Below are positions 4,979-64,000 of a stretch of 64,000 bases of DNA, piece after piece. The stretch is from positions 12,021-76,020 of the forward strand of contig DASROF010000112.1 in NCBI GenBank assembly GCA_035647075.1, read 5' to 3'. Position 1 is the first letter of the stretch. The number at the start of each line of letters is the position of its first letter. A model generated the notes under the pieces. That model was not told the DNA's origin. It saw nothing but the letters and a program-made list of their open reading frames with translations, and ran no database searches. The DNA is from Vicinamibacterales bacterium (GTDB lineage: Bacteria > Acidobacteriota > Vicinamibacteria > Vicinamibacterales > UBA2999). Position numbers and translations under genes: made by a program.

Positions 4979-5053
4979 GCGGGAGTAGTTCAGCGGTAGA
5001 ACGCGAGCTTCCCAAGCTCGATGTCGCGGGTTCGATCCCCGTCTCCCGCTCCA
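4979..5053 (+). tRNA. tRNA-Gly (anticodon CCC), CCA encoded
   Basis: Hand-folded cloverleaf. Acceptor GCGGGAG/CTCCCGC, D arm GTTC..GAAC, anticodon stem CGAGC/GCTCG with loop TTCCCAA, T arm GCGGG TTCGATC CCCGT, then T-CCA. Confidence 0.9.
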
Positions 5054-6483: not shown

Positions 6484-6519
6484 GTATGACTCCTCAGCCG
6501 ACCTGCGGTCAGCCTTTCC

Positions 6520-10830: not shown

Positions 10831-11451
10831 GTGCTGAAGGTTGTCGAACACCCGCTCGTCCAGGATGCCCTCGCGGAACTGCGCGACGCGAAAACCGCTC
10901 CGCCGGCATTCCGGCGCGCGGCAAATCGCATCAGCGTGCTGCTTGCTGCGGAGGCGCTGCGCGACGTTCCGGTCTCCCCTGCTGTCGTCACGACGCCGCT
11001 CGGACCGGCAGATGGACGCGTGGTCGACACCGACGTCGTCGTCGTGCCCGTGCTGAGGGCGGGACTCGGAATGCTCGACGCAGTGCTGGAGCTTCTGCCG
11101 ACGGCCCGCGTCGGCCACATCGGCCTGCAGCGGGACGAGGCCACCGCAATCGCGTCCCGGTATTACTCGAAGCTTCCGCCGAACCTCATGGACAGCTTCG
11201 TTTTGATGATCGATCCGATGCTCGCCACCGGCGGCAGTGCCGCTGCCGCCATCGATCTCATCAAGGCAGCCGGTGCGAAAACGATTCGGATGATCTGCAT
11301 CGTGTCGGCGCCGGAAGGAGTGAGGCTCCTGGAGAGCCGCCACCCCGATGTGGTGATCTACACTCCGGTGATCGATCGCGAGCTCAACTCGCACAAGTTC
11401 ATCGTTCCCGGGCTCGGTGACTTCGGCGATCGCCTGTACGGCACGAACTGA
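10831..11451 (+). CDS. upp: Uracil phosphoribosyltransferase
   Basis: 206 aa. HPLVQDALAELRD start, LRAGLGM, MIDPMLATGGSA, FIVPGLGDFGDRLYGT. Confidence 0.9.
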   Translation: MLKVVEHPLVQDALAELRDAKTAPPAFRRAANRISVLLAAEALRDVPVSPAVVTTPLGPADGRVVDTDVVVVPVLRAGLGMLDAVLELLPTARVGHIGLQRDEATAIASRYYSKLPPNLMDSFVLMIDPMLATGGSAAAAIDLIKAAGAKTIRMICIVSAPEGVRLLESRHPDVVIYTPVIDRELNSHKFIVPGLGDFGDRLYGTN

Positions 11452-11477
11452 CGAGCCGCTGAGCTCCACGCCCGGCT

Positions 11478-12437: not shown

Positions 12438-12547
12438 GCGATTCTGGATCCTGACCGTTCGTCCTGCTTACATCCTCGTCGGAGCCGGTCGAGTCCTGAA
12501 ATCGGCCGGACATTGACCAGCAGAGATTTGGCCCGATTCGTCCTCAT

Positions 12548-13807: not shown

Positions 13808-13857
13808 CTAACGGCAAAACTTGAGGGTTTTCGGGGGTGTGGCCTGCCCGGCCGACG

Positions 13858-13881
13858 CTCACGCGGGTTGACTCGCGTGAG
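13858..13881. terminator. Hairpin CTCACGCG-N8-CGCGTGAG between the rhomboid gene end and the tRNA-Val 3' end
   Basis: Perfect 8-bp stem read directly. No U-tract on either strand. Confidence 0.3.
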
Positions 13882-13888
13882 TGGAGGT

Positions 13889-13963
13889 TGGTGGGCGCGG
13901 GTGGAATCGAACCACCGACCCCCCGCGTGTGAAGCGGATGCTCTACCGCTGAGCCACGCGCCC
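13889..13963 (-). tRNA. tRNA-Val (anticodon CAC), CCA encoded
   Basis: The reverse complement folds by hand as GGGCGCG T GCTC..GAGC, anticodon stem TCCGC/GCGGG with loop TTCACAC, T arm GGTGG TTCGATT CCACC, CGCGCCC A CCA. Confidence 0.9.
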
Positions 13964-14079
13964 GACCGAGTGTGTAGTGCCCGTGCCGCCGACGCGCGTT
14001 GCGCGAAAGGCAGACCGGAAACTGAGTGTAACTCGACAAACCACAATCAACGAAACCAACGCTGCACCAAGGAGACCAC

Positions 14080-14457
14080 ATGACGCCCCACGCCAGATTC
14101 TTCACCCGCGCGCTCGTGCTCGCTCTGCTGCTCTGGGCGGCTCCGGCCATGGCCGGGGACGTCGACGGAAAGTGGGCCGGCACCGTATCGACTCCCGGTG
14201 GCGACCTCATGGTGGCTTACGAGTTCAAGTCGGAGGGCGGCAAGCTCACGGGCACGACGACAAGCCCGGACGGAGCAACCGTCGCCATCAAGGACGGCAA
14301 GATCGACGGCAACAAGATCGCCTTCAACGTCTCGCTGGATCTCGGCGGCATGGCGTTCGACATTGCCTACACGGGCGTCGTCACGCCGGAAGAGATCAAG
14401 CTGACGGCCGATTTCGCCGGAATGCCTTTCGAGTACTCGGTCACAAAATCCAAGTAA
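14080..14457 (+). CDS. Small secreted hypothetical protein
   Basis: 125 aa with a signal peptide (LLLWAAPAMAG) and an AAGGAG Shine-Dalgarno sequence upstream. Confidence 0.55.
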   Translation: MTPHARFFTRALVLALLLWAAPAMAGDVDGKWAGTVSTPGGDLMVAYEFKSEGGKLTGTTTSPDGATVAIKDGKIDGNKIAFNVSLDLGGMAFDIAYTGVVTPEEIKLTADFAGMPFEYSVTKSK

Positions 14458-14503
14458 CTCTCCGCTGGGCGGACGCCACAGGACGCCTCAGCGTGAACCG
14501 CGC

Positions 14504-15430
14504 TTACCGGATCGCCAGCGGATTGCCTGGCGATCCCGTCGCGCCTTTCAAGCGCAGCGGCGCAAAGATAAACGCGAACTCGTAGACGTTGTCGCGCGCG
14601 AGGTCTTCGGTCAGCAAGTTCTCGAAGATATAGATTCCGTTTTTCGCGATGAACAGCTGGTGCAGGGGAAAGGCCAGCGACGCGTCCGGATTCGGCACGA
14701 CTTCGACGCTCCACGTGTCCGCCCCCGCCATCACGATTTCACGATCCACCAGGTACTGAGCTGCCTCGAGGCCGATGCCCGGGGCATTGGCGTTGAACTT
14801 CGCGTTGTCCTTGATCCAGAGCGAGCCCCAGCCGGTGTGAAAGATCACCACGTCGCCAGACCGGATGACGACGTTCTGCCGCTTCAGCGCTCCTTCGACG
14901 TCGGCGCGCGTGATCTCATACCCTCCGGCGAGCATCGGCTGGCCTTTATATGCGGCGACGTCGATCAGAACGCCGCGAGTGACGATCGCGCCGACATTCT
15001 CGATCCCGAGCTTCGTCAGTCCCTCCGCTTTCGCGAACTCGCTGCCCTTGTTGCCGTTGTAGAACAGGTCGCCGATGCCCGCATGGCCAAGGCCGTCGAA
15101 CTGCGTGCCAATCTGTCCCAGCTCGCCGCTGATGATTTCGTCGTGGTAATACATCTGGTTCGCGCCGTTCGGCCCGAACACCTTCGGAATGCGCAGGCTG
15201 TAGTGCCGTGTGCCAAAGAGCGGCATCGCCGACTCATAGACGTGTCCGAGCTGATACGTCTGCCCGCGCATGATCAGGTTCCTGGCTTCGAGCACTTTCG
15301 CGGGCGTGATGCGATTCGCGGCCCCACGCTGATCGTCTGCGCCCCACTTCGAGGGATACCACTTGTCCTGCGCGACGCTCGCGCAGGCGACGAACATCAC
15401 CACCAACAGGGCCACGCTCGTTCGACGCAT
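14504..15430 (-). CDS. Cyclase-family protein (kynurenine formamidase-like), secreted
   Basis: The ORF-track ORF runs to 15640, but the likely start is MRRTSVALLVVMFVACASVAQ at 15430. GTQFDGLGH and HTGW motifs are typical of the putative-cyclase family. Confidence 0.7.
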   Translation of the reverse strand: MRRTSVALLVVMFVACASVAQDKWYPSKWGADDQRGAANRITPAKVLEARNLIMRGQTYQLGHVYESAMPLFGTRHYSLRIPKVFGPNGANQMYYHDEIISGELGQIGTQFDGLGHAGIGDLFYNGNKGSEFAKAEGLTKLGIENVGAIVTRGVLIDVAAYKGQPMLAGGYEITRADVEGALKRQNVVIRSGDVVIFHTGWGSLWIKDNAKFNANAPGIGLEAAQYLVDREIVMAGADTWSVEVVPNPDASLAFPLHQLFIAKNGIYIFENLLTEDLARDNVYEFAFIFAPLRLKGATGSPGNPLAIR

Positions 15431-15522
15431 CGATGCCTCCAGATTCGATGTAGACGTACACACAAAGAGGGCAGCCGTGAGGCTGCCCCCTTTTGCCTCG
15501 TACGGTGGCGCCAAGGCGCCGG

Positions 15523-16068
15523 CTACGAGGGCTTCTTCAACTGCGCAATGAGAGTCTGCAGCATCTGTGCATACTCCTCGTCGATCTGCGCAAAGATCTT
15601 CCGATACTCCTCTTCCGTGATCTTGGCCTTGCCGCCCCACTCGCCATCGAACTTATAGCTCTTCGGTCCGACGTCCACCGTGTCGAACGGCTGGTGGTCT
15701 TCGCGCTTGAATCGAAGTCCGTTCGCCCCGAGGTCCATGACGAACTGGCGCGACTGCTGATCGGACGCGCCGCTCAGGTCCATATAGACCTCTTTGAACT
15801 CCCTTTTCGTGAGCAGATCGTCCATTCGCGAGAAACTGGGGAACTTGCCTTTGACAACCAGCAGCTGCGAGCCGGAAAAATACAGCGCGCCGACATATTG
15901 ATCGCCCATCTGGCGCGCGGCAATGCTGTCCAGTTTCTGCGCGTCCAGGAGCCTGCATAATTCGGCAGCCAGCGGTGCCGACTTCGATTCCTGGGCGAGC
16001 GATGGTCGAGGCGCCAGGAGAAGGCTGCCAAGCACAAGAGCGCCGATGCTGCGAACTGCGGAAGTCAT
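15523..16068 (-). CDS. Secreted hypothetical protein
   Basis: Likely start is MTSAVRSIGALVLGSLLLAPRPSLAQ (internal Met of the 200-aa ORF). No recognised motif. Confidence 0.5.
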   Translation of the reverse strand: MTSAVRSIGALVLGSLLLAPRPSLAQESKSAPLAAELCRLLDAQKLDSIAARQMGDQYVGALYFSGSQLLVVKGKFPSFSRMDDLLTKREFKEVYMDLSGASDQQSRQFVMDLGANGLRFKREDHQPFDTVDVGPKSYKFDGEWGGKAKITEEEYRKIFAQIDEEYAQMLQTLIAQLKKPS

Positions 16069-16133
16069 GACCCCTCCTACCCTCGAAGAGGAGCGACTTG
16101 TATCACCGCCCGCGCACGGCGTCAATCATCCGT

Positions 16134-16553
16134 TCACCCGATAAAGAGCGAGTCCTCTTCCTCGTTGGTCGACGGCCGCCGGGCAGGCCCCGGGGCGCCC
16201 TGCCGGAAGGCCGAGAGCGCAGCGAGCAGCCCCTGCACCACGGCATAGGCTTCACGCGCGGGCGCGACGACCGTCTCCTCGACTACTGCGACCGTGTTGT
16301 TGACACGCGTCGTCAGGTCGCCGATCAACTGCTCTGCCTTTTGCGCCTGTGCGGACGCGATGCTCGCCGTCCGGGCAGCGTCGACCGACATCGACTTCAG
16401 GTTGGCGACGATCGGCTTCAGGTCGCCTTCCAGGCGCGTGACCGTATCGGCAACACGCCGTGAGGCGCGCATGGCTGCGACAACCGCCGCGACCTGAATC
16501 AGCGCCATCACCACGACGGCGACGGCGATGACGCCGAGGTACACGTCGTTCAC
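16134..16553 (-). CDS. DUF948-like membrane-anchored coiled-coil protein
   Basis: 139 aa with one N-terminal TM followed by a helical region. Overlaps the ytxH-like gene by 4 nt. Confidence 0.6.
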   Translation of the reverse strand: MNDVYLGVIAVAVVVMALIQVAAVVAAMRASRRVADTVTRLEGDLKPIVANLKSMSVDAARTASIASAQAQKAEQLIGDLTTRVNNTVAVVEETVVAPAREAYAVVQGLLAALSAFRQGAPGPARRPSTNEEEDSLFIG

Positions 16554-16831
16554 GCTTCCTGCTCTCCTTCGTCGGCGTGACGCTGTGCCTGACGGGCGCG
16601 ATCGAATGCCGTGGTGATGTTTTCGCGCTGCCGGTTGAATACTTCCCGACCGTGCTCGGCCGCCTGGGCGGCCCGATCCCGAGCCTCCTTGGCGCGGCGG
16701 TTCACGTACGCGCGAGTCTCGATCCCGGCTGCCGGCGCAAACAGCAGCGCCACGGCCGCTCCCACTGCCGCTCCGGCCATAAAGGCGAGCAGGACGGTCC
16801 CGCTTCCGATTCCCTGGTTCTGCTGTGACAT
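16550..16831 (-). CDS. YtxH-domain protein
   Basis: 93 aa. GAAVGAAVALLFAPAAG then a charged helical tail, typical of YtxH. Confidence 0.65.
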   Translation of the reverse strand: MSQQNQGIGSGTVLLAFMAGAAVGAAVALLFAPAAGIETRAYVNRRAKEARDRAAQAAEHGREVFNRQRENITTAFDRARQAQRHADEGEQEA

Positions 16832-16838
16832 AACAACC

Positions 16839-17879
16839 TCAGAAGATGCTGACCTTCACATTCAGGTACTTCTTCGGATCGGCTGAAATCGCCGCGATCA
16901 GCTTCCGCAACTCAGCCATCGTGGCGTTCATGTTCTCATACAACTGTTTGTCGTGGAGCAGTTGCCCGGCCGTCCCTTCGCCTTTCTGTAATGCCGCGGT
17001 GACCTGATCCATTCGGTTCACCATCGAATTCATCCGGTCATACAGCTCGCGTTCGGTGAGCAACGCGCCAGCGGTTCCCTGTCCTTTACTGAGCCGGGTG
17101 GTGATCGTATCGACGTTTGCCGACATCGACGTCAGGTTGCGGCTGAGAGTATCGTCGGTGAGAAACTTTCCCAGCGTGCCCTCGCCGGCGCGGATGCGGC
17201 CCGTCACATCCTGCAGGTTCTGCATGGCCCCTTCGAGGGCCTGCGCAGCGGCCGGATTGGTCGCCAGGCGGCCGATCGTGCCGCGGCCCGCGTTGACGTT
17301 TTGCGCCACCTCCTCTGCCGCACCGACCAGCGCATTCAGTTCGCGATAGAGTGCGTCGTTGGTGAACAGCTGCCCGATGGTGCCCCGGCCGGCACGGACG
17401 TCAGACAGGACTGCAGTCAGCTGTTCGATCCCCTCGGTCGCCTGGCTCGCAACGTCTGTGAGCGATCCCGGGGCCTTTGCTGACTTCACATATCCCCCCT
17501 CCGGGATCGGCGTGCCGTGACTGGCGGAACTGATATCGACGGCGGCCTCGCCGAGCAGCGATACGGAACCCAGCACGGCCACCGATTCAGTGGTGATCAG
17601 GGAACGATACTTTTCGTTCACCTTCATCGACACATCGACGCGATCGCCGTTGAACGTTGTTTCAGTGACGGATCCGACTTCGACGCCGGCGACCCGTACG
17701 GGCGCTCCCCTCTTCAATCCGGCGATGTTGTCGAACTTGGTCTTCAGGAGGTACTGCTGCCAGGAAAAGCCGCCTTCGCCGCTGAGCAGAAAGACCAGGG
17801 CGATCGTCATGCCGATCGCGAAGATCGAGATAAGGCCAATCTTCAACTCGGCCCAGGCTAATGAACGTGTTCGTGGCAT
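16839..17879 (-). CDS. mlaD: MlaD/MCE-family protein with extended repeat-containing C-terminus
   Basis: 346 aa. N-terminal TM, an MCE domain (VRVAGVEVGSV...), then five 34-aa repeats. Confidence 0.8.
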   Translation of the reverse strand: MPRTRSLAWAELKIGLISIFAIGMTIALVFLLSGEGGFSWQQYLLKTKFDNIAGLKRGAPVRVAGVEVGSVTETTFNGDRVDVSMKVNEKYRSLITTESVAVLGSVSLLGEAAVDISSASHGTPIPEGGYVKSAKAPGSLTDVASQATEGIEQLTAVLSDVRAGRGTIGQLFTNDALYRELNALVGAAEEVAQNVNAGRGTIGRLATNPAAAQALEGAMQNLQDVTGRIRAGEGTLGKFLTDDTLSRNLTSMSANVDTITTRLSKGQGTAGALLTERELYDRMNSMVNRMDQVTAALQKGEGTAGQLLHDKQLYENMNATMAELRKLIAAISADPKKYLNVKVSIF

Positions 17880-17916
17880 AACTGTTTCCCTTTACCTGCG
17901 CGGAAGGCGTTCCGGC

Positions 17917-18759
17917 TCACGACAGAAACTCCCGGATGTACGCATCCTGTGCCGCCCGTAGCTCCGCGGCGTTACCTTCGAAGGCCACCACACCCTCTCG
18001 CAGCATGATGAACTCGGCCTCATCGGCCTTTGCGGCGCCGGCCCGTTTCATGCGGAACCCGGAGCCCTCTCGGATTGCCTCGTGATCCGCCACGAAAAAC
18101 GCGTCGCGAAGCTGATGCGTCACGATGATGGAGCTGACCCCTTCGAGATCTCGGAGCTTGACCATCTCTTCGTCGATCGTGGTCGCGGTGATCGGATCGA
18201 GGCCGGTCGTGGCTTCGTCGTACAGCAGGATGCCCGGCCTCGCGGCGATCGCGCGGGCAATCGCGACGCGCCGTCGCTGCCCTCCTGAAAGCTCGGACGG
18301 GCGTCGATCGATGAACTCGTCGAGTCGCACGAACCCGAGCACCTCTTTGACGCGGCTCCGGATCTCATCGACCGGCAGCGTGGTCTCTTCGTACAGCTTG
18401 TAGCCGACGTTTTCCTCCACTGTCAGCGAGTCGAAGAGGGCCCCCTCCTGAAAGACCATACCGAGATCGGCACGGACCTTCATCAGCTCGCGCTCCCCCA
18501 TGCTGTCCACACGCTCGCCGTTGACGGAGACCGTGCCGCCATCGGGCTTCAAGAGGCCCAGGATCAATTTCAGGATCGTGGACTTCCCCGATCCGCTCGC
18601 GCCCAGGATGATCTTGGTGTGGCCTGGCAGCAGTGAAAAGGTGACGTCGCGAAGAATCACCTTCTCGTCGAACGCGAGGTGCACGCGGTCGAGGACGATC
18701 ACCGGTTGCTCGGAGTCGCGAGCGGTCGTCGTCGGCGCGTTCAGGGTCTGTACGGCCAT
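17917..18759 (-). CDS. mlaF: ABC transporter ATP-binding protein (MlaF-like)
   Basis: 280 aa. Walker A GASGSGKST, signature LSGGQRRRVAIARA, Walker B ILLYDEATTGLD. Confidence 0.85.
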   Translation of the reverse strand: MAVQTLNAPTTTARDSEQPVIVLDRVHLAFDEKVILRDVTFSLLPGHTKIILGASGSGKSTILKLILGLLKPDGGTVSVNGERVDSMGERELMKVRADLGMVFQEGALFDSLTVEENVGYKLYEETTLPVDEIRSRVKEVLGFVRLDEFIDRRPSELSGGQRRRVAIARAIAARPGILLYDEATTGLDPITATTIDEEMVKLRDLEGVSSIIVTHQLRDAFFVADHEAIREGSGFRMKRAGAAKADEAEFIMLREGVVAFEGNAAELRAAQDAYIREFLS

Positions 18760-53838: not shown

Positions 53839-54513
53839 TCAGCCCTGCCTGCGTAATTCGCGAAGCACGCGATCGGATTTCAGCGACTTCTCCAGATGCG
53901 TCGCGATCAGCGCGCGATGTATGCCTTCCAGCTCCCTCAGGACACGCGCGTCGGCCGGCACGGCGCCCACTTCATGCGGCGGCACGACACGAACCGCGGT
54001 GAGAAACCTCAGCGCGTCCGGCGACAGCGTGCCGCGCGCTTCCGGATAGACCCCCTGCAGCCGAAGCAGCCAGTACTCGAAATAGCGCGCCAGCGGCTCC
54101 GTCGGCACACCCGCCGTCAGTGCGTCGAGCATCGACGCGCCAAGCCGGTACAACCGATCGTCCGCGTCACTGTCTTGCGCCCACTCGTCAAGCAGTTCCG
54201 CAAAGTACTCGACGAGCATGTAATGCCCCGTCTCCGTGGACGCTGCCGGCATCGCGGTGGCCATCAACAACGGCGATCGAACCGTCTCCGCGTAATTGAG
54301 CCCCACGAGCTCGCGCCGTTCGCTCTCAAAGTAGGCGACTCGGACTTCCGTCAGCGGCTCCAGCGCGCCGGCGAACGGGGACCGCTGCCGTCGCGCCCCC
54401 TTCGCCACGCCGCGCTTCTTGCCGCGGTCGCGGGTCAGGAATACGACGATCCGATCGGCTTCACCCAGCTTATAGGTGCGGAGAACCAGGGCTTCGGCTG
54501 TGTGGAGCGGCAC
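53839..54513 (-). CDS. recO: DNA repair protein RecO
   Basis: 224 aa. AEALVLRTYKLGEADRIVVFLTRDRGKKRGVAKGARR OB-fold N-terminus. Confidence 0.85.
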   Translation of the reverse strand: MPLHTAEALVLRTYKLGEADRIVVFLTRDRGKKRGVAKGARRQRSPFAGALEPLTEVRVAYFESERRELVGLNYAETVRSPLLMATAMPAASTETGHYMLVEYFAELLDEWAQDSDADDRLYRLGASMLDALTAGVPTEPLARYFEYWLLRLQGVYPEARGTLSPDALRFLTAVRVVPPHEVGAVPADARVLRELEGIHRALIATHLEKSLKSDRVLRELRRQG

Positions 54514-54543
54514 GAACGCCCTATTTTATGTCGGTTCCCTCCT

Positions 54544-55917
54544 TTACCCGCCCGGCACCAGATACTTTGCGAACACGGCCGCCAGGCCCAGGAACGAGAA
54601 ATAGCCAAACACATCCGTCATGGTCGTGATGAACACCGATGACCCCAGCGCCGGATCGACGTTCGCCGCTCTCAGTCCCAGCGGAATCAACGTGCCGGCA
54701 GTGGCGGCCACAAACATGTTGATAACCATCGCCATTCCGAGCACGGCACCAAGCATCGGGTTGCCGCGGGTCACCATCACCACCAGCGCCGCGGCCGTGC
54801 CGAGTGCGAGGCCGTTCCCGATGCCGACGGCGGCTTCCTTCAGTAACGCCTTCCGCGAGTTGCTCCACGTCAGCTCACCGAGCGCGATCCCGCGCACGAT
54901 GACGGTCATCGTCTGTGTAGCGGCATTGCCGCCCATGCCGGCGACGATGGGCATGAAGATGGCCAGCACGGGGAACAGATCGATTTGCTTTTCAAACAAC
55001 GCCACAACGCCGGCAGCCAGAAATGCGGTAGCGAGGTTCACGGCCAGCCAGGGCACTCGCTTGCGAAGCGACTCACCCGCCGGCGTAAACGCGCGCTCGT
55101 CACCCGCAACACCGGCCAACCGGTAGATGTCTTCTGTCGCTTCGTCCTTGATGACGTCGATGACGTCATCAACCGTAATGATCCCGACAAGCTTGTTCTC
55201 TTCGTCCGTGACCGGAATGGCCAGCAGGTTGTACGCCGCGACCTGCCGCGCCACCTCCTCCTGGTCCATGTCCACGCGCGCGCTGATCAGATCCGCGGTC
55301 ATGATGCGCTTGAGCGGCGTCTCCGGTGAGACCAGCAGCAGGCGTCGAAGCGAGACGACGCCGACGAGATGCTTCCGGTCATCGACGACGTAGAGATAGA
55401 AGACCATCTCGACATCCCGGTTGTTCTGCAGCTCGGTGATCGCCTCGCCAACCGTCATGTCTTCGCTGAGGGCGAAGACGTGCGGGTTCATGATGCGGCC
55501 CGCGGTCTGCTCGTCGTACTCGAGCAGGTTCTCGACGACGCCGGACTCCTTCGGACGCATCAGGTCGAGCACTGCCGATGACAGCTCTTCAGGCAGGTAA
55601 TCGATCAGGGCTGCCGCGTCGTCGGACGGGATCTCCTGGGCCAGCTTGGCGATATCTTCAGCGGAGCGCGTGGCCAGCAGAGCGGAGCCCGACTCAGGCC
55701 CGAGTTCGGAGATCGTCTCCATCGCCAGCCGGCCGTTCCGTTCGGCCAGCAGGCTGAACGCGGCCTCGCGGTCCTTCTCTGCCAGTTCGCCGAAGATTTG
55801 AGCGAGATCGGCTGGGTGCTGCTTCTGCAGCAGGTTCAACAGGTTAGCGGTCGCACCAATGCGCAGCAGTCGCTTGACTGAGTCGAGGACGAGATCGATT
55901 CTGCGTTGCGCCGCCAT
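54544..55917 (-). CDS. mgtE: Magnesium transporter MgtE
   Basis: 457 aa. N-domain, tandem CBS region, and a C-terminal 5-TM domain with PIVAGMGGNAATQ. Confidence 0.9.
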   Translation of the reverse strand: MAAQRRIDLVLDSVKRLLRIGATANLLNLLQKQHPADLAQIFGELAEKDREAAFSLLAERNGRLAMETISELGPESGSALLATRSAEDIAKLAQEIPSDDAAALIDYLPEELSSAVLDLMRPKESGVVENLLEYDEQTAGRIMNPHVFALSEDMTVGEAITELQNNRDVEMVFYLYVVDDRKHLVGVVSLRRLLLVSPETPLKRIMTADLISARVDMDQEEVARQVAAYNLLAIPVTDEENKLVGIITVDDVIDVIKDEATEDIYRLAGVAGDERAFTPAGESLRKRVPWLAVNLATAFLAAGVVALFEKQIDLFPVLAIFMPIVAGMGGNAATQTMTVIVRGIALGELTWSNSRKALLKEAAVGIGNGLALGTAAALVVMVTRGNPMLGAVLGMAMVINMFVAATAGTLIPLGLRAANVDPALGSSVFITTMTDVFGYFSFLGLAAVFAKYLVPGG

Positions 55918-56036: not shown

Positions 56037-56654
56037 GTGGGAATGTCGGCCGGAACGCCTGAACGGCGTTCCTCGAGCGGCGAGATCAGCGCCGAGGTCG
56101 TCGAGGCGTGCCGCCGGGGTGACCGGGATGCGTTCCGATCGCTCTACGAGGCGTATAAGGATCGCGTCTACTCGATCGCCTACTACTACTTTCATGCAGA
56201 CAGCGACGCCGCGGGCGAGGTGACTCAGCAGGTGTTTCTGAAGTTGATGCGCGAGATGAGCAGATTCCGTGGGGAGTCCGCGTTTTCAACATGGCTGTAT
56301 CGACTGGTCGTCAACGCCTGCGTCGATCGATCACGCAGCCGTCGCAAAGACGCGTTCGGTGAAGACCCGATCGTGCTGGAGCGGATGGCAACGCACGCGT
56401 CGCACGAAGACCTGTTCGCGCAGCGTGAGGTCGCAGAGTCAGTACAACAGGCAATTGCCGCGCTCCCCGCCAAGCTGCGGGTCGCCATCCTGTTGCGCTA
56501 TTTCGAAGACCTCTCCTATGCGGACATGGCGACGGCGCTGAACTGCTCGATCGGAACGGTGGCGTCCAGGCTGAGTCGAGGACATCGCTTGCTCGCCAGG
56601 ACGCTGGCTCCGATGCGAGAGACGATTGCGGCGGAGCCTCCGCCGAAGGCTTAA
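56037..56654 (+). CDS. ECF-type RNA polymerase sigma factor
   Basis: 205 aa. Region 2 (RVYSIAYYYF...FSTWLYRLVVNACVDR) and region 4 (YFEDLSYADMATALNCSIGTVASRLSRG). Start is GTG 56037 or ATG 56043. Confidence 0.85.
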   Translation: MGMSAGTPERRSSSGEISAEVVEACRRGDRDAFRSLYEAYKDRVYSIAYYYFHADSDAAGEVTQQVFLKLMREMSRFRGESAFSTWLYRLVVNACVDRSRSRRKDAFGEDPIVLERMATHASHEDLFAQREVAESVQQAIAALPAKLRVAILLRYFEDLSYADMATALNCSIGTVASRLSRGHRLLARTLAPMRETIAAEPPPKA

Positions 56655-56659
56655 GGCTT

Positions 56660-57727
56660 GTGGACATGTTTACCAGGCACGTCGATAAATCACTCACCCG
56701 CTACTCGGACGGCGAGTTGACCGCCGTCGAGGAGCGGCGTATCGACGATCACCTGGCGTCATGTTCGAAGTGCCGCGCGGCGCTGGATGAGATTCAGTTC
56801 TCGACGCGGCTGATGCGTCAGCTCAGTGGGGTCAACGCCCCTTCGTCCGTTTGGAACGGGATCGATGCCGCACTGACGGAGTGGCGGAATGACGGCTCTG
56901 CCTACGGGGGAACCCTCCCCACCGGGCATGTCTTCGGACGACCGCTGCGGTGGGCTGTAGCCGTCGCACTGATTGCAATCGTTTCGGGCGGTGCGTATTT
57001 GTGGACTCGTGAGACTACGCCCCGACCATGGGAAGTTGCTCACACGATGGGCGGCGCGCGGCGAATGGCCGCTGGAGAGTGGGTTGAAACCGATAGCAGC
57101 TCGAAGGCGCGGATCATCGTCGGCCCCCTGGGGACGGTCGATGTCGAACCGGGGACTCGTGTGCAGCTCGGCCAGGTGCGCGATTCCGAGTATCGGCTGG
57201 CGTTGTCGCACGGCACGATAAGCGCCGAGATCAATGCCCCGCCGCGGCTGTTCATCGTCGACACGCCGGCCAGCGCGGTCGTCGACCTCGGTTGCGCCTA
57301 CACGGTCACGGTCGGCAAGGACGGGGCCGGCGAACTGCACATGACGACCGGCTGGGCCGCCCTCGAATTCAACGGTCGGGAATCGCTTGTCCCTGCCGGC
57401 GCAATCTGCCGCACGAAGCGCGGCACCGGACCTGGCACTCCGTACTTCGAGGACGCGTCCATTGCCTTGCGGCAGGCGGTCGACGACTTCGACAGCGGCA
57501 AGGACGCTCGCCGCGCGCTCGAGGTGATCCTGAATGAAGCCCGCATTCGAGACACGCTGACGCTCTGGCACCTGTTAGCGCGCGTGAACCCGTCGGACCG
57601 GCAACGTATCTACGACCGAATCGCGGCGGTCGCGCCGCTATCGGCTCGCGTGTCGCGTGATCAGATTCTGGCGTTAGACCCCGATGCGTTGCGGAGGTGG
57701 CGAGAAGAGCTCGCCTGGAAATGGTAA
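56660..57727 (+). CDS. Anti-sigma factor (zf-HC2) with TM and FecR-like periplasmic domain
   Basis: 355 aa. HLASCSKCRAAL zinc-finger anti-sigma motif and a TM (WAVAVALIAIVSGGAYLW). Lies 5 nt after the sigma gene. Confidence 0.8.
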   Translation: MDMFTRHVDKSLTRYSDGELTAVEERRIDDHLASCSKCRAALDEIQFSTRLMRQLSGVNAPSSVWNGIDAALTEWRNDGSAYGGTLPTGHVFGRPLRWAVAVALIAIVSGGAYLWTRETTPRPWEVAHTMGGARRMAAGEWVETDSSSKARIIVGPLGTVDVEPGTRVQLGQVRDSEYRLALSHGTISAEINAPPRLFIVDTPASAVVDLGCAYTVTVGKDGAGELHMTTGWAALEFNGRESLVPAGAICRTKRGTGPGTPYFEDASIALRQAVDDFDSGKDARRALEVILNEARIRDTLTLWHLLARVNPSDRQRIYDRIAAVAPLSARVSRDQILALDPDALRRWREELAWKW

Positions 57728-57745
57728 TCACTGGAGGAGCCTGAG

Positions 57746-58246
57746 ATGTCGTTCACCAGAACAGTCGGCACAACGGCCGTGGCCATCACCTGCCTTGTCG
57801 CCGTGGCAGGCGCAGGAACCATGTTCCGTCTGGAAATCGGTCCACCCATCGCGGCGGGCATTTCGAAGAGCAAGGACCTGAAGAAGACGGACGGCAAGAA
57901 GGCCGTTCTCGCGGTACGCGCTCTTGTCTGCGATGACCTGGCACACGTCCAGATTAGCGGCACCGCTGAAGGGCTCGTCAACGGAGCCCGGCAGTCTCTT
58001 CCACTCACATTGACCGAGGTCGACAGGGGTGAAGCGATCTATTTCATCGCGCAGCAGTGGCCGAATGAGGGCGCATGGGTGCTGCACCTCAAGGGGTCCT
58101 GCTCGAACCCGAAAGCCGAAGCCAGCACCCTGGTGGCGGTGAGCAAGGGTGCATTCATCCGCGAGAAGAGCGAAGTGCTTCGCGAACCGGCGACGAAGAA
58201 ACAGGTGGAGGACGCCGTCAAGGCAGTCGCCCGCTCACAGTCGTAG
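57746..58246 (+). CDS. Small secreted hypothetical protein
   Basis: 166 aa with an N-terminal signal/anchor (TAVAITCLVAVAGAG). Lies 18 nt after the anti-sigma gene. Confidence 0.55.
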   Translation: MSFTRTVGTTAVAITCLVAVAGAGTMFRLEIGPPIAAGISKSKDLKKTDGKKAVLAVRALVCDDLAHVQISGTAEGLVNGARQSLPLTLTEVDRGEAIYFIAQQWPNEGAWVLHLKGSCSNPKAEASTLVAVSKGAFIREKSEVLREPATKKQVEDAVKAVARSQS

Positions 58247-58269
58247 GTCGCAGCGCTTCGTCGTCGTCA

Positions 58270-58300
58270 GCACCCAGCGAAAGTTCACGTCGCTGGGTGC
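58270..58300 (+). terminator. Strong hairpin GCACCCAGCG-N11-CGCTGGGTGC, 24 nt after the secreted-protein gene
   Basis: Perfect 10-bp stem read directly, with no U-tract. It separates the sigma/anti-sigma unit from the receiver-HEAT-GT2-HK-YaiO unit. Confidence 0.4.
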
Positions 58301-58399
58301 AGCCGCGTGCATGGCGATGCAGTGCTACACCGGTCCCGTTGCCGCAGTCCTGATCCTTTCTGTAACGACCATCCCTCCAGCAGTCGATAAGCCAGCCAG

Positions 58400-58825
58400 G
58401 TGGCACACACATCAACGGCGGCGGCAACTGCGAACGCGACGGTCTCGACACTCCGCGACGTGCTCGTCATCGAGGACGATCCGGTCGTCTCGCGACTGGT
58501 CGAACACCTGCTGACCCGGCGCGGCTTCGCCGTGCACGTCGCCGCCGACGGCCTTCACGCCCAGTCCCTGCTCAAAACCCTGCCGCGACCGGCCGTCATC
58601 GTGATGGACGTGATGCTGCCCTACGTGGGCGGCTTCGAGCTGATCACTGAGATTCGTCAGACATCCGGCTGGGAACGCGTCCCTGTGATCATGCTGACTT
58701 CGAAGTCACAGGAACGCGACGTTCTGCGCGCATTCGACGCCGGCGTCAACGACTATGTGGTCAAACCATTCCGTCCCGAGGAGTTCGTAGCTCGCGTCCG
58801 ACGCCTGGCGGATGCGCGCGATTAG
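58400..58825 (+). CDS. Stand-alone response-regulator receiver protein (CheY-like, no output domain)
   Basis: 141 aa. VLVIEDD..., VIVMDVMLPYVGG (acceptor Asp), MLTSK, VVKPF. The start could also be GTG at 58451. Confidence 0.8.
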   Translation: MAHTSTAAATANATVSTLRDVLVIEDDPVVSRLVEHLLTRRGFAVHVAADGLHAQSLLKTLPRPAVIVMDVMLPYVGGFELITEIRQTSGWERVPVIMLTSKSQERDVLRAFDAGVNDYVVKPFRPEEFVARVRRLADARD

Positions 58826-58849
58826 GGCCACGCAGGGCGGCACACATCC

Positions 58850-59887
58850 ATGAGTCTTCAGCTCGTCACAGCGGCTGGTATCGTCATCGGCCTTCTGTAC
58901 CTCGTCGTGGTTCTGCAAATCTTCTTTGCCCGGCTCCGCAACCGGATCCGGACGAAGCGGCAGCTCGGCCTCGAACGTACATGGCTGCCAATTCTGGTGG
59001 CCGACACCACCGCCATACCCGAATCACTGCCACCCCTGCGCCAGCGCGATCTCATTCCGTTTCTGACCCTGTGGAACCAGTTGCAGGAGTCGTTCACCGG
59101 CGAGATTACCGGTCATCTCAACGAGGTAGCGCGTCGGATTGGCGCGGACGTTCAGGCGCGACGCATGCTCGATCAACGCAGCCTGCGTCGTCGGCTGCTG
59201 GCGGTCTCGACGCTGGGGCACCTCGGCGACCGCGGCGACCGGGACTCGTGGGCGGCGTTGGTTCGCCTGACGGCCGACAAGGACGGTCTCCTCTCTCTCG
59301 CTGCTGCGCGCGCGCTGACCCGAATCGATGCGACAGCCGCGATGCCGGTCATCCTGCCGCCTCTCAGCGAACGCGACGATTGGTCCAGAAACTACGCGCT
59401 CGCCATGCTGACCGATCTCGGGGTGGACGTCGTGTCGCGCCCGCTGACCGATGCAGCACTGCATTTTCCGATCGAGCGGGCGCCACGGCTGCTGCAGTAC
59501 TTCAACGTCGCCCACCTCGCGGACGCGATGCCGGTCGTTCGCACACTCATTGCCCGGACCAGCAATGTCGAATGCCTGGCGGCGTGTCTGCGATTGTTCG
59601 CCGATGTTGACGACCTCGATACCGTGCGCGACTACCTGCACCACCCGTCGTGGCAGGTGCGAGTGCAGGCGGTGAATGTGCTGGCGCGGCTTGGGCGCGA
59701 GGAGGACTACGCCTTCCTTCAACCGCTGCTGTGCGATTCGGAGTGGTGGGTGCGATACCGGACCGCGAAAGCCCTGTGTTCGTTGCCTGGCGTCGAAATG
59801 TCGCGCATCAGAGACTTGAGTCAGAAACATCGCGACGCGTTCGCCAGGGACATGCTGGTGCACGTACTGGCGGAGGCAGGGGCATGA
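58850..59887 (+). CDS. Membrane-anchored HEAT-repeat protein
   Basis: 345 aa. One N-terminal TM (AAGIVIGLLYLVVVLQIFF), then HEAT/PBS-lyase-like repeats (e.g. HPSWQVRVQAVNVLARLG, DSEWWVRYRTAKALCSL). The stop overlaps the GT2 start (ATGA). Confidence 0.75.
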   Translation: MSLQLVTAAGIVIGLLYLVVVLQIFFARLRNRIRTKRQLGLERTWLPILVADTTAIPESLPPLRQRDLIPFLTLWNQLQESFTGEITGHLNEVARRIGADVQARRMLDQRSLRRRLLAVSTLGHLGDRGDRDSWAALVRLTADKDGLLSLAAARALTRIDATAAMPVILPPLSERDDWSRNYALAMLTDLGVDVVSRPLTDAALHFPIERAPRLLQYFNVAHLADAMPVVRTLIARTSNVECLAACLRLFADVDDLDTVRDYLHHPSWQVRVQAVNVLARLGREEDYAFLQPLLCDSEWWVRYRTAKALCSLPGVEMSRIRDLSQKHRDAFARDMLVHVLAEAGA

Positions 59888-61326
59888 ACGTGGTAACCGT
59901 CGCCAATATCTTCGGGTGGGCGGCGCTCGCCTATCTGGTCGGCATCAATGCCGTATATCTCGTCCTCAACGTCGTCTCCTTCGTGGTCCTTCGGCGCCAT
60001 AAGCAGCGCGGGACGCTTGGTCCGCTCTCCACCCGGTTCTCGAGCCTCGAAGTGCCGGTGTCGCTGCTCATCCCCGCGTACAACGAGGAACACACGGTGG
60101 TGGCGACGGTGCGCTCGCTGCTGCAGCTCAATTATTCGCACTTCGAGATCGTGGTCATCAACGACGGCTCCAGCGATCGGACACTCAACCGCTTGAAGGA
60201 GGCGTTCGACCTGCAGGTCTTCCCCGAGGTCGTCCGGCGGCGGCTGGCGACCGAGCCGATCCGTGCTGTGTATCGCTCACCGATCTATCCGGAACTGAAG
60301 GTGATCGACAAACACAACGGCGGGAAGGCCGACGCCTTGAACGCGGGCATCAATACCGCGCAATACCCCCTCTACTGCGCCTTGGACGCCGACGGGGTCC
60401 TCCGACCCGACAGCTTGCAGAGCATCACGCGCCCGTTCCTGGATGACCCGCTCACGGTTGCAGCTGGAGGCATCATTCGCATCGCCAACGGCTGCGATGT
60501 CGTCAACGGCTGGCTGGTGCGTACGGGACTACCTCGTCGTCCGCTGCCGATGCTCCAGGTCGTCGAGTACTGCCGCGCGTTTCTGTTCGGGCGCCTGGGC
60601 TGGAACCCGGTCAACGGCCTGCTCGTCATCTCCGGCGCCTTCGGCGTGTTCCATAAGGAAACCGTCATCGAGGCCGGGGGGTATCGCCGCAACACCATCG
60701 GCGAGGACATGGAACTGGTCGTACGGCTCCACCGCTTTCTCGGGGGCGCGGGACGGCCGTACCGCATTGTCTTCGCACCGGAACCGGTGTGCTGGACAGA
60801 GGCGCCAGAGAGCATCGGGGCGCTTCGTACTCAGCGCATCCGATGGCAGCGCGGTCTCTGCGAAAGCCTCTGGCTGAACCGGCAACTGCTCTTCAGCCGT
60901 CGCGGAGGCTGGGCGGGATGGGTGGCGTTTCCATTCGCGCTTCTATTCGAGTGCCTCAGCCCCGTGGTCGAAGCACTGGGCTGGGTCTATTTCGGCGCGG
61001 GCTTTCTTGCTGGATTCGTAGGCTGGGGCTTCGCGCTGGCATTCCTCATCGTGAACATCGGGTTCGGCACTCTGCTCTCGGTCAGCTCGCTGCTGCTCGA
61101 CGAGATTTCGTATCACACGTATCCACGGTTTCGTCAGATTCTCGCGCTTCTGGTTGCCGCAACGGTCGAGAACCTCGGGTATCGCCAGATGACGGCCTAC
61201 TGGCGACTGGTCGGCCTCGTCCACTGGATCGCCGGCACCAAGGCCCACTGGGGCGACATGAAACGGACCGCCGAGTGGAGCAGCCCGCTGCCATCCCCGC
61301 AGGCATCGACGACAAACCGAACATGA
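59884..61326 (+). CDS. Integral-membrane family-2 glycosyltransferase, processive synthase type (PgaC/IcaA/NodC-like motifs)
   Basis: Start is MNVVTVANIF at 59884 (internal Met of the 558-aa track ORF), giving 480 aa. Motifs are IPAYNEE, NDGSSD, LDADG, GEDME and QRIRWQRG (QxxRW), with N- and C-terminal TM clusters. Confidence 0.8.
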   Translation: MNVVTVANIFGWAALAYLVGINAVYLVLNVVSFVVLRRHKQRGTLGPLSTRFSSLEVPVSLLIPAYNEEHTVVATVRSLLQLNYSHFEIVVINDGSSDRTLNRLKEAFDLQVFPEVVRRRLATEPIRAVYRSPIYPELKVIDKHNGGKADALNAGINTAQYPLYCALDADGVLRPDSLQSITRPFLDDPLTVAAGGIIRIANGCDVVNGWLVRTGLPRRPLPMLQVVEYCRAFLFGRLGWNPVNGLLVISGAFGVFHKETVIEAGGYRRNTIGEDMELVVRLHRFLGGAGRPYRIVFAPEPVCWTEAPESIGALRTQRIRWQRGLCESLWLNRQLLFSRRGGWAGWVAFPFALLFECLSPVVEALGWVYFGAGFLAGFVGWGFALAFLIVNIGFGTLLSVSSLLLDEISYHTYPRFRQILALLVAATVENLGYRQMTAYWRLVGLVHWIAGTKAHWGDMKRTAEWSSPLPSPQASTTNRT

Positions 61327-63392
61327 CCACGAAGACGCGGACGCACGCGCGACGCGCCTTCCGACGTCACGACGCATCGCGCACCACGCCCCGGCGCAGC
61401 GGCACGCTCGCAGCGATTCGCGCGGAACGTGACCAGGCCCTGGAGCGCGCTCGTCGCACGTCGGAGTTCATCTCCCACGCGAGCCACGAGATCCGGACGC
61501 CGCTGCACGGCATCATGGGTTTCTCGACACTGCTGCTCGGCGCGGAGCTGTCGGACGAACAGCGGCGGCTGGCCAATTCGCTTCATGCGAGCATCGAATC
61601 GCTGCTCGCGGTCGTCAACGACGTACTCGATGTGTCGACGCTCGAGGCCGGCGCGATGCGACTGGAATCCGCCGGATTCAACCTGGTGGCGCTGGTCAGG
61701 GGCGTCGCGGACATGTTCAGCGAAACAGCCATGGCGAAGGGACTGGTCCTCCGCGTCGACACAGACGGCGTGAAACATACGACCGTGACGGGCGACCCTG
61801 GACGCATCCGTCAGATCCTGGCGAACTTCGTCTCCAACGCGGTGAAGTTCACCGATGAGGGCTCGGTGGTCATCCGTGCCGCGACTCGGGCGACAAGCAG
61901 CGGCACCGTCGACGTTCGCCTGGCGGTGAGTGACACAGGCCCCGGCGTTCCGCGTCACGCCCAGGCACGCCTCTTCCAGCCGTTCTCCCGGATCGACCGT
62001 CCGGCCGTCGCCTCCAAGCCAGGGACGGGCCTGGGTCTTTCAATCTCAAAGCAGCTCGTCGAACTGATGGGCGGAACGGTGAGCGTCTCCAGCCGTTCCC
62101 CTCGAGGCTCGATCTTCGCCTTCACGGTCAGTCTCAAAGAGGACACCCGCCCCATCGGACATCGTGCGCTCGAGCTGATCGAGACGGCGAAACTTCGTGT
62201 CTACGTCGCAGACGACGATTCCCGATCGCTGAGCGAGTTGCTGCTGTCGCTCGCGGTGACGGGTGTGGAAGTTGCTGCGAGCGGGTCGGCAGCAGGGTTA
62301 CCGGAAGCGCTGCGCACAGCACGGTCTGCCGGTCACTCGATCGACGTCGCGATCGTGGGCCACGTTCGTCTGCAGGGCGGCGACCTGGCCATCGCGAAAG
62401 CAATCAGGGCCGATCCCCGTTTGGCAGGCGTACCGCTGGTGCTGGCGCCGGTGTCCGGCGTTCGAGGTTACGCCCGCGACGTTCGCGAGGCGGGATATAG
62501 CGCGTACATTCCGAGACCGTTCCAGGGTGCCGAACTGCTCCAGTGCCTGCGGGCAGTGATGGTGCACGGTCACGACAGCGCCACGCTGGACGATCCGCTG
62601 ATCACGCGCCACAACGTTACCGACCAGCCGAACCTCCCGACAGGGCGCGTCCTTCTGGCTGACGATGATTCGGTGAGCCGCCATGTCACGCGCTTGCAGG
62701 TTGCGCGCCTCGGGTATCTCGTTGACGAAGTGGCCGGCGGAGCGGACGCGGTGGCGGCCGCGGCAACCGGCGCGTATCAGCTGATCCTGCTGGACTGCCA
62801 GATGCCGGGCATGGACGGCCTCGCAGCAGCTGCAGCGATCAGACGAGCGGAGCGAAACGGACGCCGTGCCTTCATCGCCGCGCTGACGGCAGACGTGAGC
62901 CGGGAACAGCGCGACCGCTGCCGCCAGGCTGGCATGGACGACTTCCTGGAGAAGCCGCTGCGGCTGCAACGGCTAGCCGAACTGCTCAATACCCACTTGC
63001 GGCGCGGCCCCGACACCACAGTGACCGACGCGCGCACCGCTGCACGCGACGCCGCTGTCGCGACCGGCCTGAATCTCCTCGCGGCCGACATCGGCCCTGA
63101 GAAGACGCTTGAACTCGTCCGCGAATACGTTGCCGGCGTGGATCTGGCGATCGAACGTCTATCGCACCTCGACCTCGTGGACGCCTCCGTCTTGCGCAGC
63201 GTCGCGCATCGGCTCCTCGGCGGCGCCCGCATCCTTGGACTCGTCCGCTTTGAGCGCATCTGGGCCGCGCTCTCCGACGGTCCGGAAGGCGCTGAGCCCA
63301 GCATGCCGCCGATGGCCATTCACGAATTGCGCGACGCCTCTGCGGAACTTGCCACCTGGATCGATTCGCACCAAAGGAAGCAGCATGCCTAA
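61323..63392 (+). CDS. Cytoplasmic hybrid histidine kinase: HisKA-HATPase_c-degenerate REC-REC-Hpt, no sensor or TM domain
   Basis: Start is [11 protein letters not shown] at 61323 (ATGA overlap with GT2). H-box [12 protein letters not shown]-box NAVKFT, G-boxes [14 protein letters not shown], second [14 protein letters not shown]...LEKPL, Hpt [11 protein letters not shown]. Confidence 0.85.
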
Positions 63393-64000
63393 ACGCCTCA
63401 TCATCGCCGCCGCGCTGATCCTCATGGCTGGAGCAGCGTCGGCCCAGGACAACGTCATTTCAACCGCGCGCGCCGCCTACGCCGCCGGACAACGACCGCA
63501 GGCATTGGCTATGCTGGCGAGCCATGTCGCTGCCACACCGCGCGACGTGGACGCCCGGCTGGTGTACGGCCTGATGCTCTCGTGGGACCGACGTTATGAC
63601 GAAGCCCGCTCGGAACTGCAGCAGGTCCTGATCCAGACGCCCGATTACAGAGACGCGCGGGTCGCGCTGATGAACGTCGAATGGTGGTCCGGCCATACAT
63701 CGTCAGCCAGCGACCTGGCCACGCAGATCCTGACGCGCGATCCGGGCGACCCGCAGGCCCGTCTGATGCGCCAGCGGCTCGATGCGCAGACACGGCCGTG
63801 GCAGGTCAAGACCGGTTACTCACTCGACTCCTTCAATGACGGCGGCGACCCGTGGCATGAGTTCGAGATCTCCGTCGGGCGCGAGACGTCACGAGGCAGC
63901 GTCTTTGTAAGAGGTACGAACGCGGCGCGCTTCGGTTACCGCGATCAGCTCGTGGAGGTCGAGGCGTACCCGAGCTTGCGGGCCGGCACGTACGCCTTCA
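63385..64000 (+). CDS. TPR + YaiO-family outer-membrane beta-barrel protein (N-terminal part; 3' end outside window)
   Basis: Own translation gives [21 protein letters not shown] (signal), TPR-like helices, then RPWQVKTGYSLDSFNDGGDPWHEFEISVGRETSRGSVFVRGTNAARFGYRDQLVEVEAYP, which resembles the YaiO barrel start. ATG 63385 overlaps the HK stop by 8 nt. Absent from the ORF track because no stop lies in the window. Confidence 0.7.
   Translation, partial: MPKRLIIAAALILMAGAASAQDNVISTARAAYAAGQRPQALAMLASHVAATPRDVDARLVYGLMLSWDRRYDEARSELQQVLIQTPDYRDARVALMNVEWWSGHTSSASDLATQILTRDPGDPQARLMRQRLDAQTRPWQVKTGYSLDSFNDGGDPWHEFEISVGRETSRGSVFVRGTNAARFGYRDQLVEVEAYPSLRAGTYAF

Follow-up and report, generated by a model that had tools for sequence, protein, structure and literature searches.

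Synthase-dependent systems that produce cellulose, poly-N-acetylglucosamine (PNAG), alginate and Pel are gated by cyclic di-GMP (c-di-GMP), and PgaCD binds this nucleotide without a PilZ domain. In the cellulose system, BcsG adds phosphoethanolamine to the nascent polymer, and the outer-membrane barrels of PgaA, BcsC and AlgE are built of 16-18 strands. NfrB/NfrA comprises a c-di-GMP-controlled synthase and an outer-membrane protein. To our knowledge, class I hyaluronan synthase (HAS) needs neither dedicated partner proteins nor an exporter in the outer membrane. Here we analyzed a gene cluster that resembles several of these systems in part. It runs from position 56037 to the edge of a 64,000-nucleotide stretch (the window) of a Vicinamibacterales (Acidobacteriota) contig belonging to a metagenome-assembled genome (MAG). 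The cluster contains eight genes on one strand, as identified with the list of open reading frames (ORFs) and with Pfam and NCBIfam scans. From 58400 onward, these genes form the beginning of a seven-gene operon, which we interpret as an uncharacterized synthase-dependent machine for polysaccharide synthesis and export, probably gated after translation by a receiver protein. On the strength of sequence and modeled folds, we estimate the probability of this interpretation at roughly 55%; it includes the proposal that two separate units lie side by side, namely an extracytoplasmic function (ECF) sigma set at 56037-58246 and the operon from 58400. The genes of the operon that are present in the window are as follows.

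58400-58825, plus strand: stand-alone receiver of 141 amino acids, first gene of the module (Pfam Response_reg, E = 1.4e-27)
58850-59887, plus strand: HEAT-repeat protein of 345 amino acids with a transmembrane (TM) anchor (HEAT_2, E = 9e-19)
59884-61326, plus strand: membrane glycosyltransferase of family 2 (GT2), 480 amino acids (Pfam Glycos_transf_2, Glyco_tranf_2_3 and Glyco_trans_2_3)
61323-63392, plus strand: hybrid histidine kinase of 689 amino acids (Pfam HisKA, HATPase_c and Response_reg)
63385-64000 (window edge), plus strand: 5' part of the gene for a signal peptide-tetratricopeptide repeat (TPR)-YaiO barrel protein (TPR_19; YaiO, E = 1e-10)

An original prediction, made from the DNA letters, had described eight co-oriented genes with their domains and overlaps, and all of these were confirmed by the ORF list, the two family scans and direct reading of the sequence. 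The signal peptide-TPR-YaiO identity of the last gene also stood, but its start had been misplaced and is correctly 63385. The HEAT/GT2 and GT2/kinase overlaps each read ATGA, and the kinase and YaiO genes overlap by ATGCCTAA. The genes past the window edge were read from near-identical contigs, which match the window at 99.4-99.7% identity where the two overlap. The YaiO gene is followed by a gene for a TPR protein of 225 amino acids with a TM segment or signal anchor, then by a gene for an 807-amino-acid protein of the alkaline phosphatase (AP) superfamily ("Sulfatase" in Pfam terms), in which ~10 TM segments precede the catalytic domain at residues 432-700. Every junction from the HEAT gene through the AP-superfamily gene has an overlap of 1-8 nucleotides. 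The module ends ~5.7 kb past the window edge, giving seven genes from 58400, and is followed by the convergent housekeeping genes era, corC, ybeY and phoH. A deacetylase, acetyltransferase or glycoside hydrolase had been suggested as possible beyond position 64000; the TPR protein and the AP-superfamily enzyme were found there instead, and no deacetylase was present within 10 kb.

As in the Pga system, the locus encodes a putative inner-membrane processive GT2, comparable in size and topology, for which PgaC_IcaA is the nearest curated family, together with a small inner-membrane partner whose gene adjoins that of the synthase and a TPR-plus-barrel protein as the candidate outer-membrane exporter. 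However, the GT2, TPR and barrel scores are far under the Pga cutoffs (24-26 bits against 367 for the PgaA model TIGR03939), the partner is a TM-anchored HEAT solenoid rather than PgaD, PgaB deacetylase/hydrolase is missing, and PgaA is far longer than the YaiO-family barrel. Where Pga uses c-di-GMP, a receiver and kinases are present here. The type II Bcs cellulose system of Escherichia coli, with BcsG, likewise combines a GT2 synthase with a polytopic AP-superfamily enzyme and a TPR-barrel exporter. By contrast, PilZ, BcsB, BcsE/F/Q/R and BcsZ are all absent from our locus, the scores reach only 48.6 bits against a cutoff of 699 for CelA (TIGR03030) and 17 bits against 858 for BcsC, and the AP enzyme, which occurs in only a subset of the loci, lies outside the BcsG family and carries Thr at the nucleophile position.

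The original prediction placed yaiO of Escherichia coli near the GT2 gene yaiP and yaiS, and this was correct: in strain K-12 the cluster yaiS-yaiP-yaiX-yaiO brings together a YaiO-family barrel and a membrane GT2 in one co-oriented arrangement. Nevertheless, YaiP is 24% identical to the GT2 studied here and its aligned QxxRW position is degenerate, and E. coli YaiO lacks a TPR region and shows no significant pairwise BLAST similarity to the barrel protein, so that the two are related at the profile level only. The E. coli cluster contains an acyltransferase and a deacetylase but lacks genes for a HEAT protein, a receiver and an AP enzyme. NfrB/NfrA, compared by Pfam only, shares the general layout of a GT2 synthase with an outer-membrane TPR/barrel protein; Pfam reported neither MshEN nor NfrA_C in our locus, and control by the receiver would here replace that by c-di-GMP. 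Among full-length structural matches, class I HAS ranked first for the GT2 model (E = 1e-14, TM-score ~0.58), and in both cases one polypeptide would polymerize and translocate the chain, yet the sequence identity is 16-18%. The features of the synthase-dependent class found here are GT2 motifs with a TM channel-type fold and, in the same operon, a signal peptide-TPR-YaiO barrel protein. NCBIfam (June 2026) contained no specific model for any protein of the module, proteobacterial copies included, and no description of the module was found in open-access full text. The view that GT2, TPR/YaiO, HEAT and receiver genes constitute an uncharacterized module of the synthase-dependent type is thus supported by domains, fold and synteny.

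Conservation of the module was evaluated by scanning one genome per species with the GT2 alignment, which gave at least 592 relatives, and the best 80 loci (46-62% identity) were kept. Counts were obtained by profile searches of six-frame ORFs, and 57 loci whose flanks reach at least 4.5 kb in each direction served as a full-flank set. The 80 loci span ~10 phyla, comprising Pseudomonadota, Nitrospirota, Gemmatimonadota, Acidobacteriota, Bacteroidota and relatives, Myxococcota, Nitrospinota and an Acidimicrobiia MAG; carriers among the Pseudomonadota include Massilia, Polaromonas, Stenotrophomonas, Lysobacter, Luteimonas, Stutzerimonas stutzeri, Halomonas and Rheinheimera. The recurring neighbors were as follows.

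HEAT gene immediately 5' of the GT2 gene, same strand: 66/80 loci, 49/57 full-flank loci
Receiver gene upstream: 52/80 loci, 42/57 full-flank loci
YaiO-like barrel gene within 5 kb of the GT2 gene: 59/80 loci, 44/57 full-flank loci

The HEAT-GT2 adjacency, the upstream receiver and the nearby YaiO gene therefore recur over ~10 phyla, and by these co-occurrence counts in 80 loci the conserved core of the module is receiver, HEAT, GT2 and YaiO. The HEAT/GT2 overlap is exactly 4 nucleotides in 54 of the 66 adjacent pairs, which points to translational coupling of the two genes conserved across phyla. Five further Nitrospira loci have an intact receiver-HEAT pair ~6 kb from the GT2 gene. In most proteobacterial loci, a barrel protein of ~250 amino acids, ending in ...GLRxxF and scoring 126 bits with the YaiO model, is encoded between the receiver and HEAT genes. 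The usual order is receiver-YaiO-HEAT-GT2, and that of the window is permuted. In 10 of the 80 loci, belonging to Xanthomonadales and to other lineages, the AP-superfamily enzyme is encoded after the barrel. Only one locus, that of the Acidimicrobiia MAG (L075), is clearly monoderm; it has receiver, HEAT and GT2 genes and no barrel within 10 kb, and this single case fits an outer-membrane role for YaiO. Conserved-looking genes without a family match were also observed beside some modules: after the AP enzyme gene in Stenotrophomonas (L047, 15156-16085, 309 amino acids), after the GT2 gene in Massilia (L025, 11481-12694, 180 and 224 amino acids) and after the module in locus L089 (10530-11915, 461 amino acids). 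These could be additional module components.

The GT2, which is 100% identical to a protein annotated from a Vicinamibacterales MAG, has an N-terminal TM segment and C-terminal TM helices, and its catalytic motifs (D94 of NDGS, D168-A-D170, G273-E-D275 and Q317-R-I-R-W321) are invariant in 18 homologues. When its AlphaFold2 model was compared with the PDB, the best matches, over ~490-530 columns, were hyaluronan synthase, BcsA (including BcsA-BcsG complexes) and chitin synthases, whereas soluble non-processive GT2 enzymes aligned with the catalytic core alone. Grouping with non-processive, soluble-acceptor enzymes had been named beforehand as an outcome that would speak against the module; the full-length fold match is instead with processive synthases. 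These results indicate that the GT2 is a putative processive synthase/translocase. Its nearest curated family, PgaC_IcaA, matched residues 136-468 with 130 bits (E = 1e-37) against a cutoff of 422, and proteobacterial orthologues scored 125-132 bits with the same model (TIGR03937, PgaC/IcaA). With a score so far below the cutoff, the match does not specify a product for the GT2. No nucleotide-sugar genes are present in the module, which suggests that the donor is a housekeeping nucleotide-sugar.

The HEAT protein consists of one N-terminal TM segment (residues 8-26) and a HEAT_2 solenoid. Its AlphaFold2 model has a mean predicted local distance difference test (pLDDT) value of 93.5 and is all-helical, with a long N-terminal helix, containing the TM segment, that leads into the alpha-solenoid. 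Since an Arg/Lys cluster follows the single TM segment, we predict a cytoplasmic location for the solenoid. Only generic solenoids (the PP2A A subunit, importins, ARM/HEAT proteins and designed repeat proteins) were retrieved by a fold search of the PDB, which offered no functional lead. The family is large, with 1,688 clusters at 50% identity and E ≤ 1e-30; the best 150 matches are mostly 340-370 amino acids long, and members are annotated merely as "hypothetical protein" or "HEAT repeat". From its coupling with the synthase gene, we infer that the HEAT protein is a stoichiometric partner of GT2. It had been proposed to replace partners of the PgaD or BcsB type. The BcsB part of this proposal did not hold, because BcsB lies in the periplasm and the HEAT domain, by prediction, in the cytoplasm; the protein may be PgaD-like at most.

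The stand-alone receiver has no output or DNA-binding domain. It retains the acidic pocket E25-D26-D27, the phospho-acceptor D70, T100 and K122. When 52 syntenic orthologues were aligned, at least 90% of them shared D70 and at least 96% shared K122-P-F. The adjoining hybrid kinase of the window is cytoplasmic, without a TM segment or recognizable sensor domain, and is arranged as HisKA (H55), HATPase, a degenerate receiver (~291-414), a receiver (D491) and Hpt (H629). The degenerate receiver, which follows the ATPase domain and precedes the canonical receiver, keeps DDD and a central Asp and has RP in place of KP; it was not mentioned in the original prediction. The kinase had been described there as a sensor-less hybrid with Hpt. 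The kinase assignment and the lack of a sensor were borne out, whereas the Hpt domain is below the Pfam cutoff (E = 0.002, 18.8 bits against 24.6), although its histidine motif is present and orthologous kinases at the same gene position in loci L087 and L088 do match Hpt. The residues and motifs of a candidate His-Asp-His-Asp relay are all present (H-box His, N and G boxes, receiver Asp, Hpt His and the Asp of the terminal receiver), with Hpt sub-cutoff. The idea that the kinase is a fixed part of the module had to be abandoned, as it is not in the conserved core and the sensors of neighboring kinases differ by lineage. Kinases adjoining the module elsewhere, on either strand, carry GAF-PAS, CHASE, CHASE3, dCache-PAS or MASE3-PAS sensors, and the window kinase is unusual among them in lacking a recognizable sensor domain. 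This is the pattern expected if variable kinase inputs feed a conserved output of receiver, HEAT and GT2.

The full YaiO protein, read from near-identical contig L003, has 369 amino acids and consists of a signal peptide, ~3 TPRs and a barrel with the C-terminus ...AYKF. It matched PF19413 with E = 2.6e-35 and 122.4 bits (cutoff 23.9) and TIGR04390 with 102.9 bits (cutoff 32), and the fragment in the window is itself above both cutoffs (42 and 34 bits, respectively). By these profile scores the barrel is a true YaiO-family member. In the AP enzyme, Thr occupies the sulfatase nucleophile position (YGATGLSVPS; QGRTF in Proteobacteria). Of 12 module-linked homologues, 11 share this Thr and one has Ser, and the formylglycine sulfatase motif CxPxR (C/S-x-P-x-R) is absent from the enzyme. 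The Thr, D/E and DH ligand positions align with enzymes of the LtaS/OpgB/EptA type, with all family scores far below cutoffs, and LtaS and phosphoglycerol transferase I (OpgB) both match the Stenotrophomonas copy across its whole catalytic domain. Because Thr replaces the formylglycine residue, the CxPxR motif is missing and the Stenotrophomonas enzyme aligns with LtaS/OpgB, a true sulfatase was rejected, and the protein appears to be LtaS/OpgB/EptA-like, of the lipid-head-group phosphotransferase type.

Gene content, motifs, fold class and co-conservation are established directly, and from them the polymer, the protein contacts and export through YaiO are inferred as follows. The GT2 would use a housekeeping UDP-sugar to build a beta-linked glycan, threading the chain through its own TM channel. 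The HEAT protein, made in step with GT2, would sit at the cytoplasmic face of the synthase as an obligatory scaffold. A lineage-specific kinase would phosphorylate the output-less receiver, in the window through the soluble hybrid kinase by a His-Asp-His(Hpt)-Asp route, and the phosphorylated receiver would then bind the HEAT/GT2 complex and switch synthesis on or off post-translationally, taking the role that c-di-GMP receptors have in Bcs, Pga, Alg and Pel. Where the AP enzyme is present, it may transfer glycerol-phosphate or phosphoethanolamine from a membrane lipid onto the chain in the periplasm, comparable to the action of BcsG on cellulose. The TPR domains would lead the chain to the YaiO-family barrel, through which it would cross the outer membrane.

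A broader form of this proposal, which we consider possible though short of likely, is that the module is a widespread system in which phosphorylation replaces the c-di-GMP switch, the receiver docks on the HEAT scaffold, lineage-specific kinases plug in, YaiO exports the polymer and the forms with an AP enzyme produce a decorated glycan. If this is true, production of the biofilm matrix would follow a second logic of regulation alongside c-di-GMP gating, and the orphan YaiO barrel family would for the first time have a function, that of a compact exporter of polysaccharides. YaiO is a conserved outer-membrane protein that appears in the literature mainly as a PCR marker for E. coli. A role would also be provided for a HEAT family of at least ~1,700 sequence clusters now annotated as hypothetical. 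Carriers of the module include nitrifiers and abundant soil lineages and extend from Acidobacteriota to Proteobacteria, Nitrospirota and Gemmatimonadota; culturable ones (such as Massilia niabensis, Stenotrophomonas sp. SY1, Stutzerimonas stutzeri 28a39 and Halomonas sp. E19) place the hypothesis within reach of direct tests.

Several observations weigh against a receiver-gated export machine. The GT2 model is of moderate confidence (pLDDT 74). We know of no YaiO-family protein with demonstrated export function, the YaiO domain of ~230 residues is short compared with the barrels of PgaA, BcsC and AlgE, and 13 of the 57 full-flank loci have no barrel within 5 kb. Direct contact is not backed by gene fusions: no receiver-HEAT or HEAT-GT2 fusion was found among the HEAT homologues, and the longer hits (P0349, P0376, P0345 and P0378) contain HEAT repeats only. 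About one-quarter of the full-flank loci have no receiver, in particular the Xanthomonadales form HEAT-GT2-YaiO-AP; some lineages can therefore dispense with it. In addition, genes for c-di-GMP turnover flank the module in two loci, namely REC-HD-GYP (5777-6706) and GGDEF-EAL (15563-18178) genes in L088 and an HDOD-GGDEF gene (11940-13472) in L089, and c-di-GMP input may occur in some lineages. As predicted, GGDEF, EAL and PilZ were not detected by Pfam in the 11 proteins of the window and its extension, and no other c-di-GMP receptor domain (degenerate GGDEF, MshEN or PgaCD-type) was recognized in them. Control by His-Asp phosphorylation instead of c-di-GMP is plausible. In a study of Stutzerimonas stutzeri MJL19, the LTA-synthase-family gene lsfS altered c-di-GMP levels, and no link to the present cluster was made there.

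The proposed gating by the receiver was weighed against two other accounts of its regulation. The module may be as described while the receiver and kinase do not act on the enzyme directly and serve instead as a phosphate sink, a branch of a relay or the input to an unlinked transcription factor, so that adjacency reflects co-regulation only. Single-domain receivers are often phosphate sinks or connectors, and the existence of receiver-less variants, together with the lack of any fusion or interaction evidence among our results, agrees with such an account. We nevertheless regard it as unlikely, given that the receiver is conserved while the kinases vary, that Nitrospira retains receiver-HEAT adjacency with GT2 several kilobases away and that no DNA-binding regulator is conserved in the neighborhood. 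The conservation of a receiver without a DNA-binding domain as the part beside HEAT/GT2 also counts against a second account, in which the locus is a divergent PNAG (Pga/Ica-type) or cellulose-type system controlled by c-di-GMP at a cryptic site, as in PgaC-PgaD, and the two-component genes act on transcription or elsewhere. The PgaC_IcaA match over residues 136-468, the binding of c-di-GMP by PgaCD without PilZ and the turnover genes beside L088 and L089 would all be explained in this way. Against it are the PgaC, PgaA, CelA and BcsC scores (130/422, 26/367, 49/699 and 17/858 bits, respectively) and the absence of a PgaB-type deacetylase, PgaD, BcsB and PilZ, which make a system of this type improbable.

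Two further accounts concern the destination of the product and the neighboring sigma factor. If the GT2 and AP enzyme made a periplasmic or membrane-associated glycan, like OpgH and OpgB, the YaiO barrel would not be an exporter. The match of the Stenotrophomonas AP enzyme to OpgB and LtaS over its entire catalytic domain is compatible with this, as are the assignment of the GT2 to Glyco_trans_2_3, the Pfam family to which OpgH belongs, and the lack of a glycoside hydrolase or lyase, in which the module differs from known secretion systems. However, no OpgG/OpgD-like gene was found and no OpgH model scored, the AP enzyme occurs in a minority of loci, and the TPR-barrel protein, with its signal peptide and C-terminal aromatic residue, is co-conserved in 59 of the 80 loci and missing from the monoderm locus L075. 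A periplasmic glycan is accordingly very unlikely in our estimation. In the remaining account, the module of this lineage is transcribed under the ECF sigma factor encoded next to it; this account depends on the features that precede the operon in the window, which are as follows.

56037-56654, plus strand: ECF sigma factor (Sigma70_r2 and r4_2; TIGR02937, 105 bits against a cutoff of 42.9)
56660-57727, plus strand: anti-sigma factor (zf-HC2, one TM segment, weak FecR-like domain)
57746-58246, plus strand: exported protein of 166 amino acids (hydrophobic N-terminal signal or anchor)
58270-58300, plus strand: hairpin (stem of 10-11 bp, loop of 9 nucleotides)

The two units are co-oriented and separated by a gap of 153 nucleotides, and the string GTAAC-N16-GTCG occurs just 5' of the receiver start, at 58362-58386. 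This string was found twice in the window, against 1.5 occurrences expected by chance; visual inspection showed no counterpart 5' of the sigma gene, and the sequence preceding the receiver gene is not conserved between the window and L087. An ECF-type promoter common to the sigma gene and the module was consequently rejected. Locus L087, with 76% GT2 identity, contains the seven module genes in the same order between unrelated genes, and the ECF sigma, anti-sigma and 166-amino-acid genes are absent. The trio was seen only on the near-identical contigs L001-L005, and a sigma/anti-sigma/166-amino-acid set was conserved beside the module in none of the 80 other-species loci. The original prediction that the module is wired to the ECF pair is therefore not supported, since L087 keeps the seven-gene order without the trio, and we give little credence to transcription of the operon from the neighboring sigma factor. 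As judged from its gene content, the trio is an ordinary adjacent set of sigma factor, anti-sigma factor and small exported protein, outside the module. The different neighborhood in L087 also suggests that the module moves as a unit.

The 166-amino-acid protein had no match in Pfam or NCBIfam and, like the rest of the trio, was encountered on the near-identical contigs only. The predicted hairpin after the first three genes is real by folding. It was rejected as a terminator because it has no U-tract, was not reported by the terminator scan and lies in an intergenic region whose fold is not unusual (z = -1.4); it is a possible boundary between the two units. Beyond two tRNA genes, tRNA-Gly(CCC) at 4979-5053 and tRNA-Val(CAC) at 13889-13963, the Rfam scan reported no riboswitch or other RNA family in the window.

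The plus-strand block of 10 genes formed by the ECF trio and the module, around which the GC content has no step, interrupts a minus-strand array of housekeeping genes, with phoH-ybeY-corC-era on one side and mgtE-recO-glyQ-glyS on the other. In the window, recO and mgtE occupy 53839-55917 on the minus strand; era, corC, ybeY, phoH and aspS are found on the minus strand of L003 at 11057-14817. On L001, an 808-kb JGI contig, the sigma and anti-sigma genes are split into three calls (6156-7844) and the TPR and AP genes are fused (14611-17709). This contig is 83% identical to the window position by position, compared with >99% for L002-L005, which looks like the result of assembly indel errors rather than biology.

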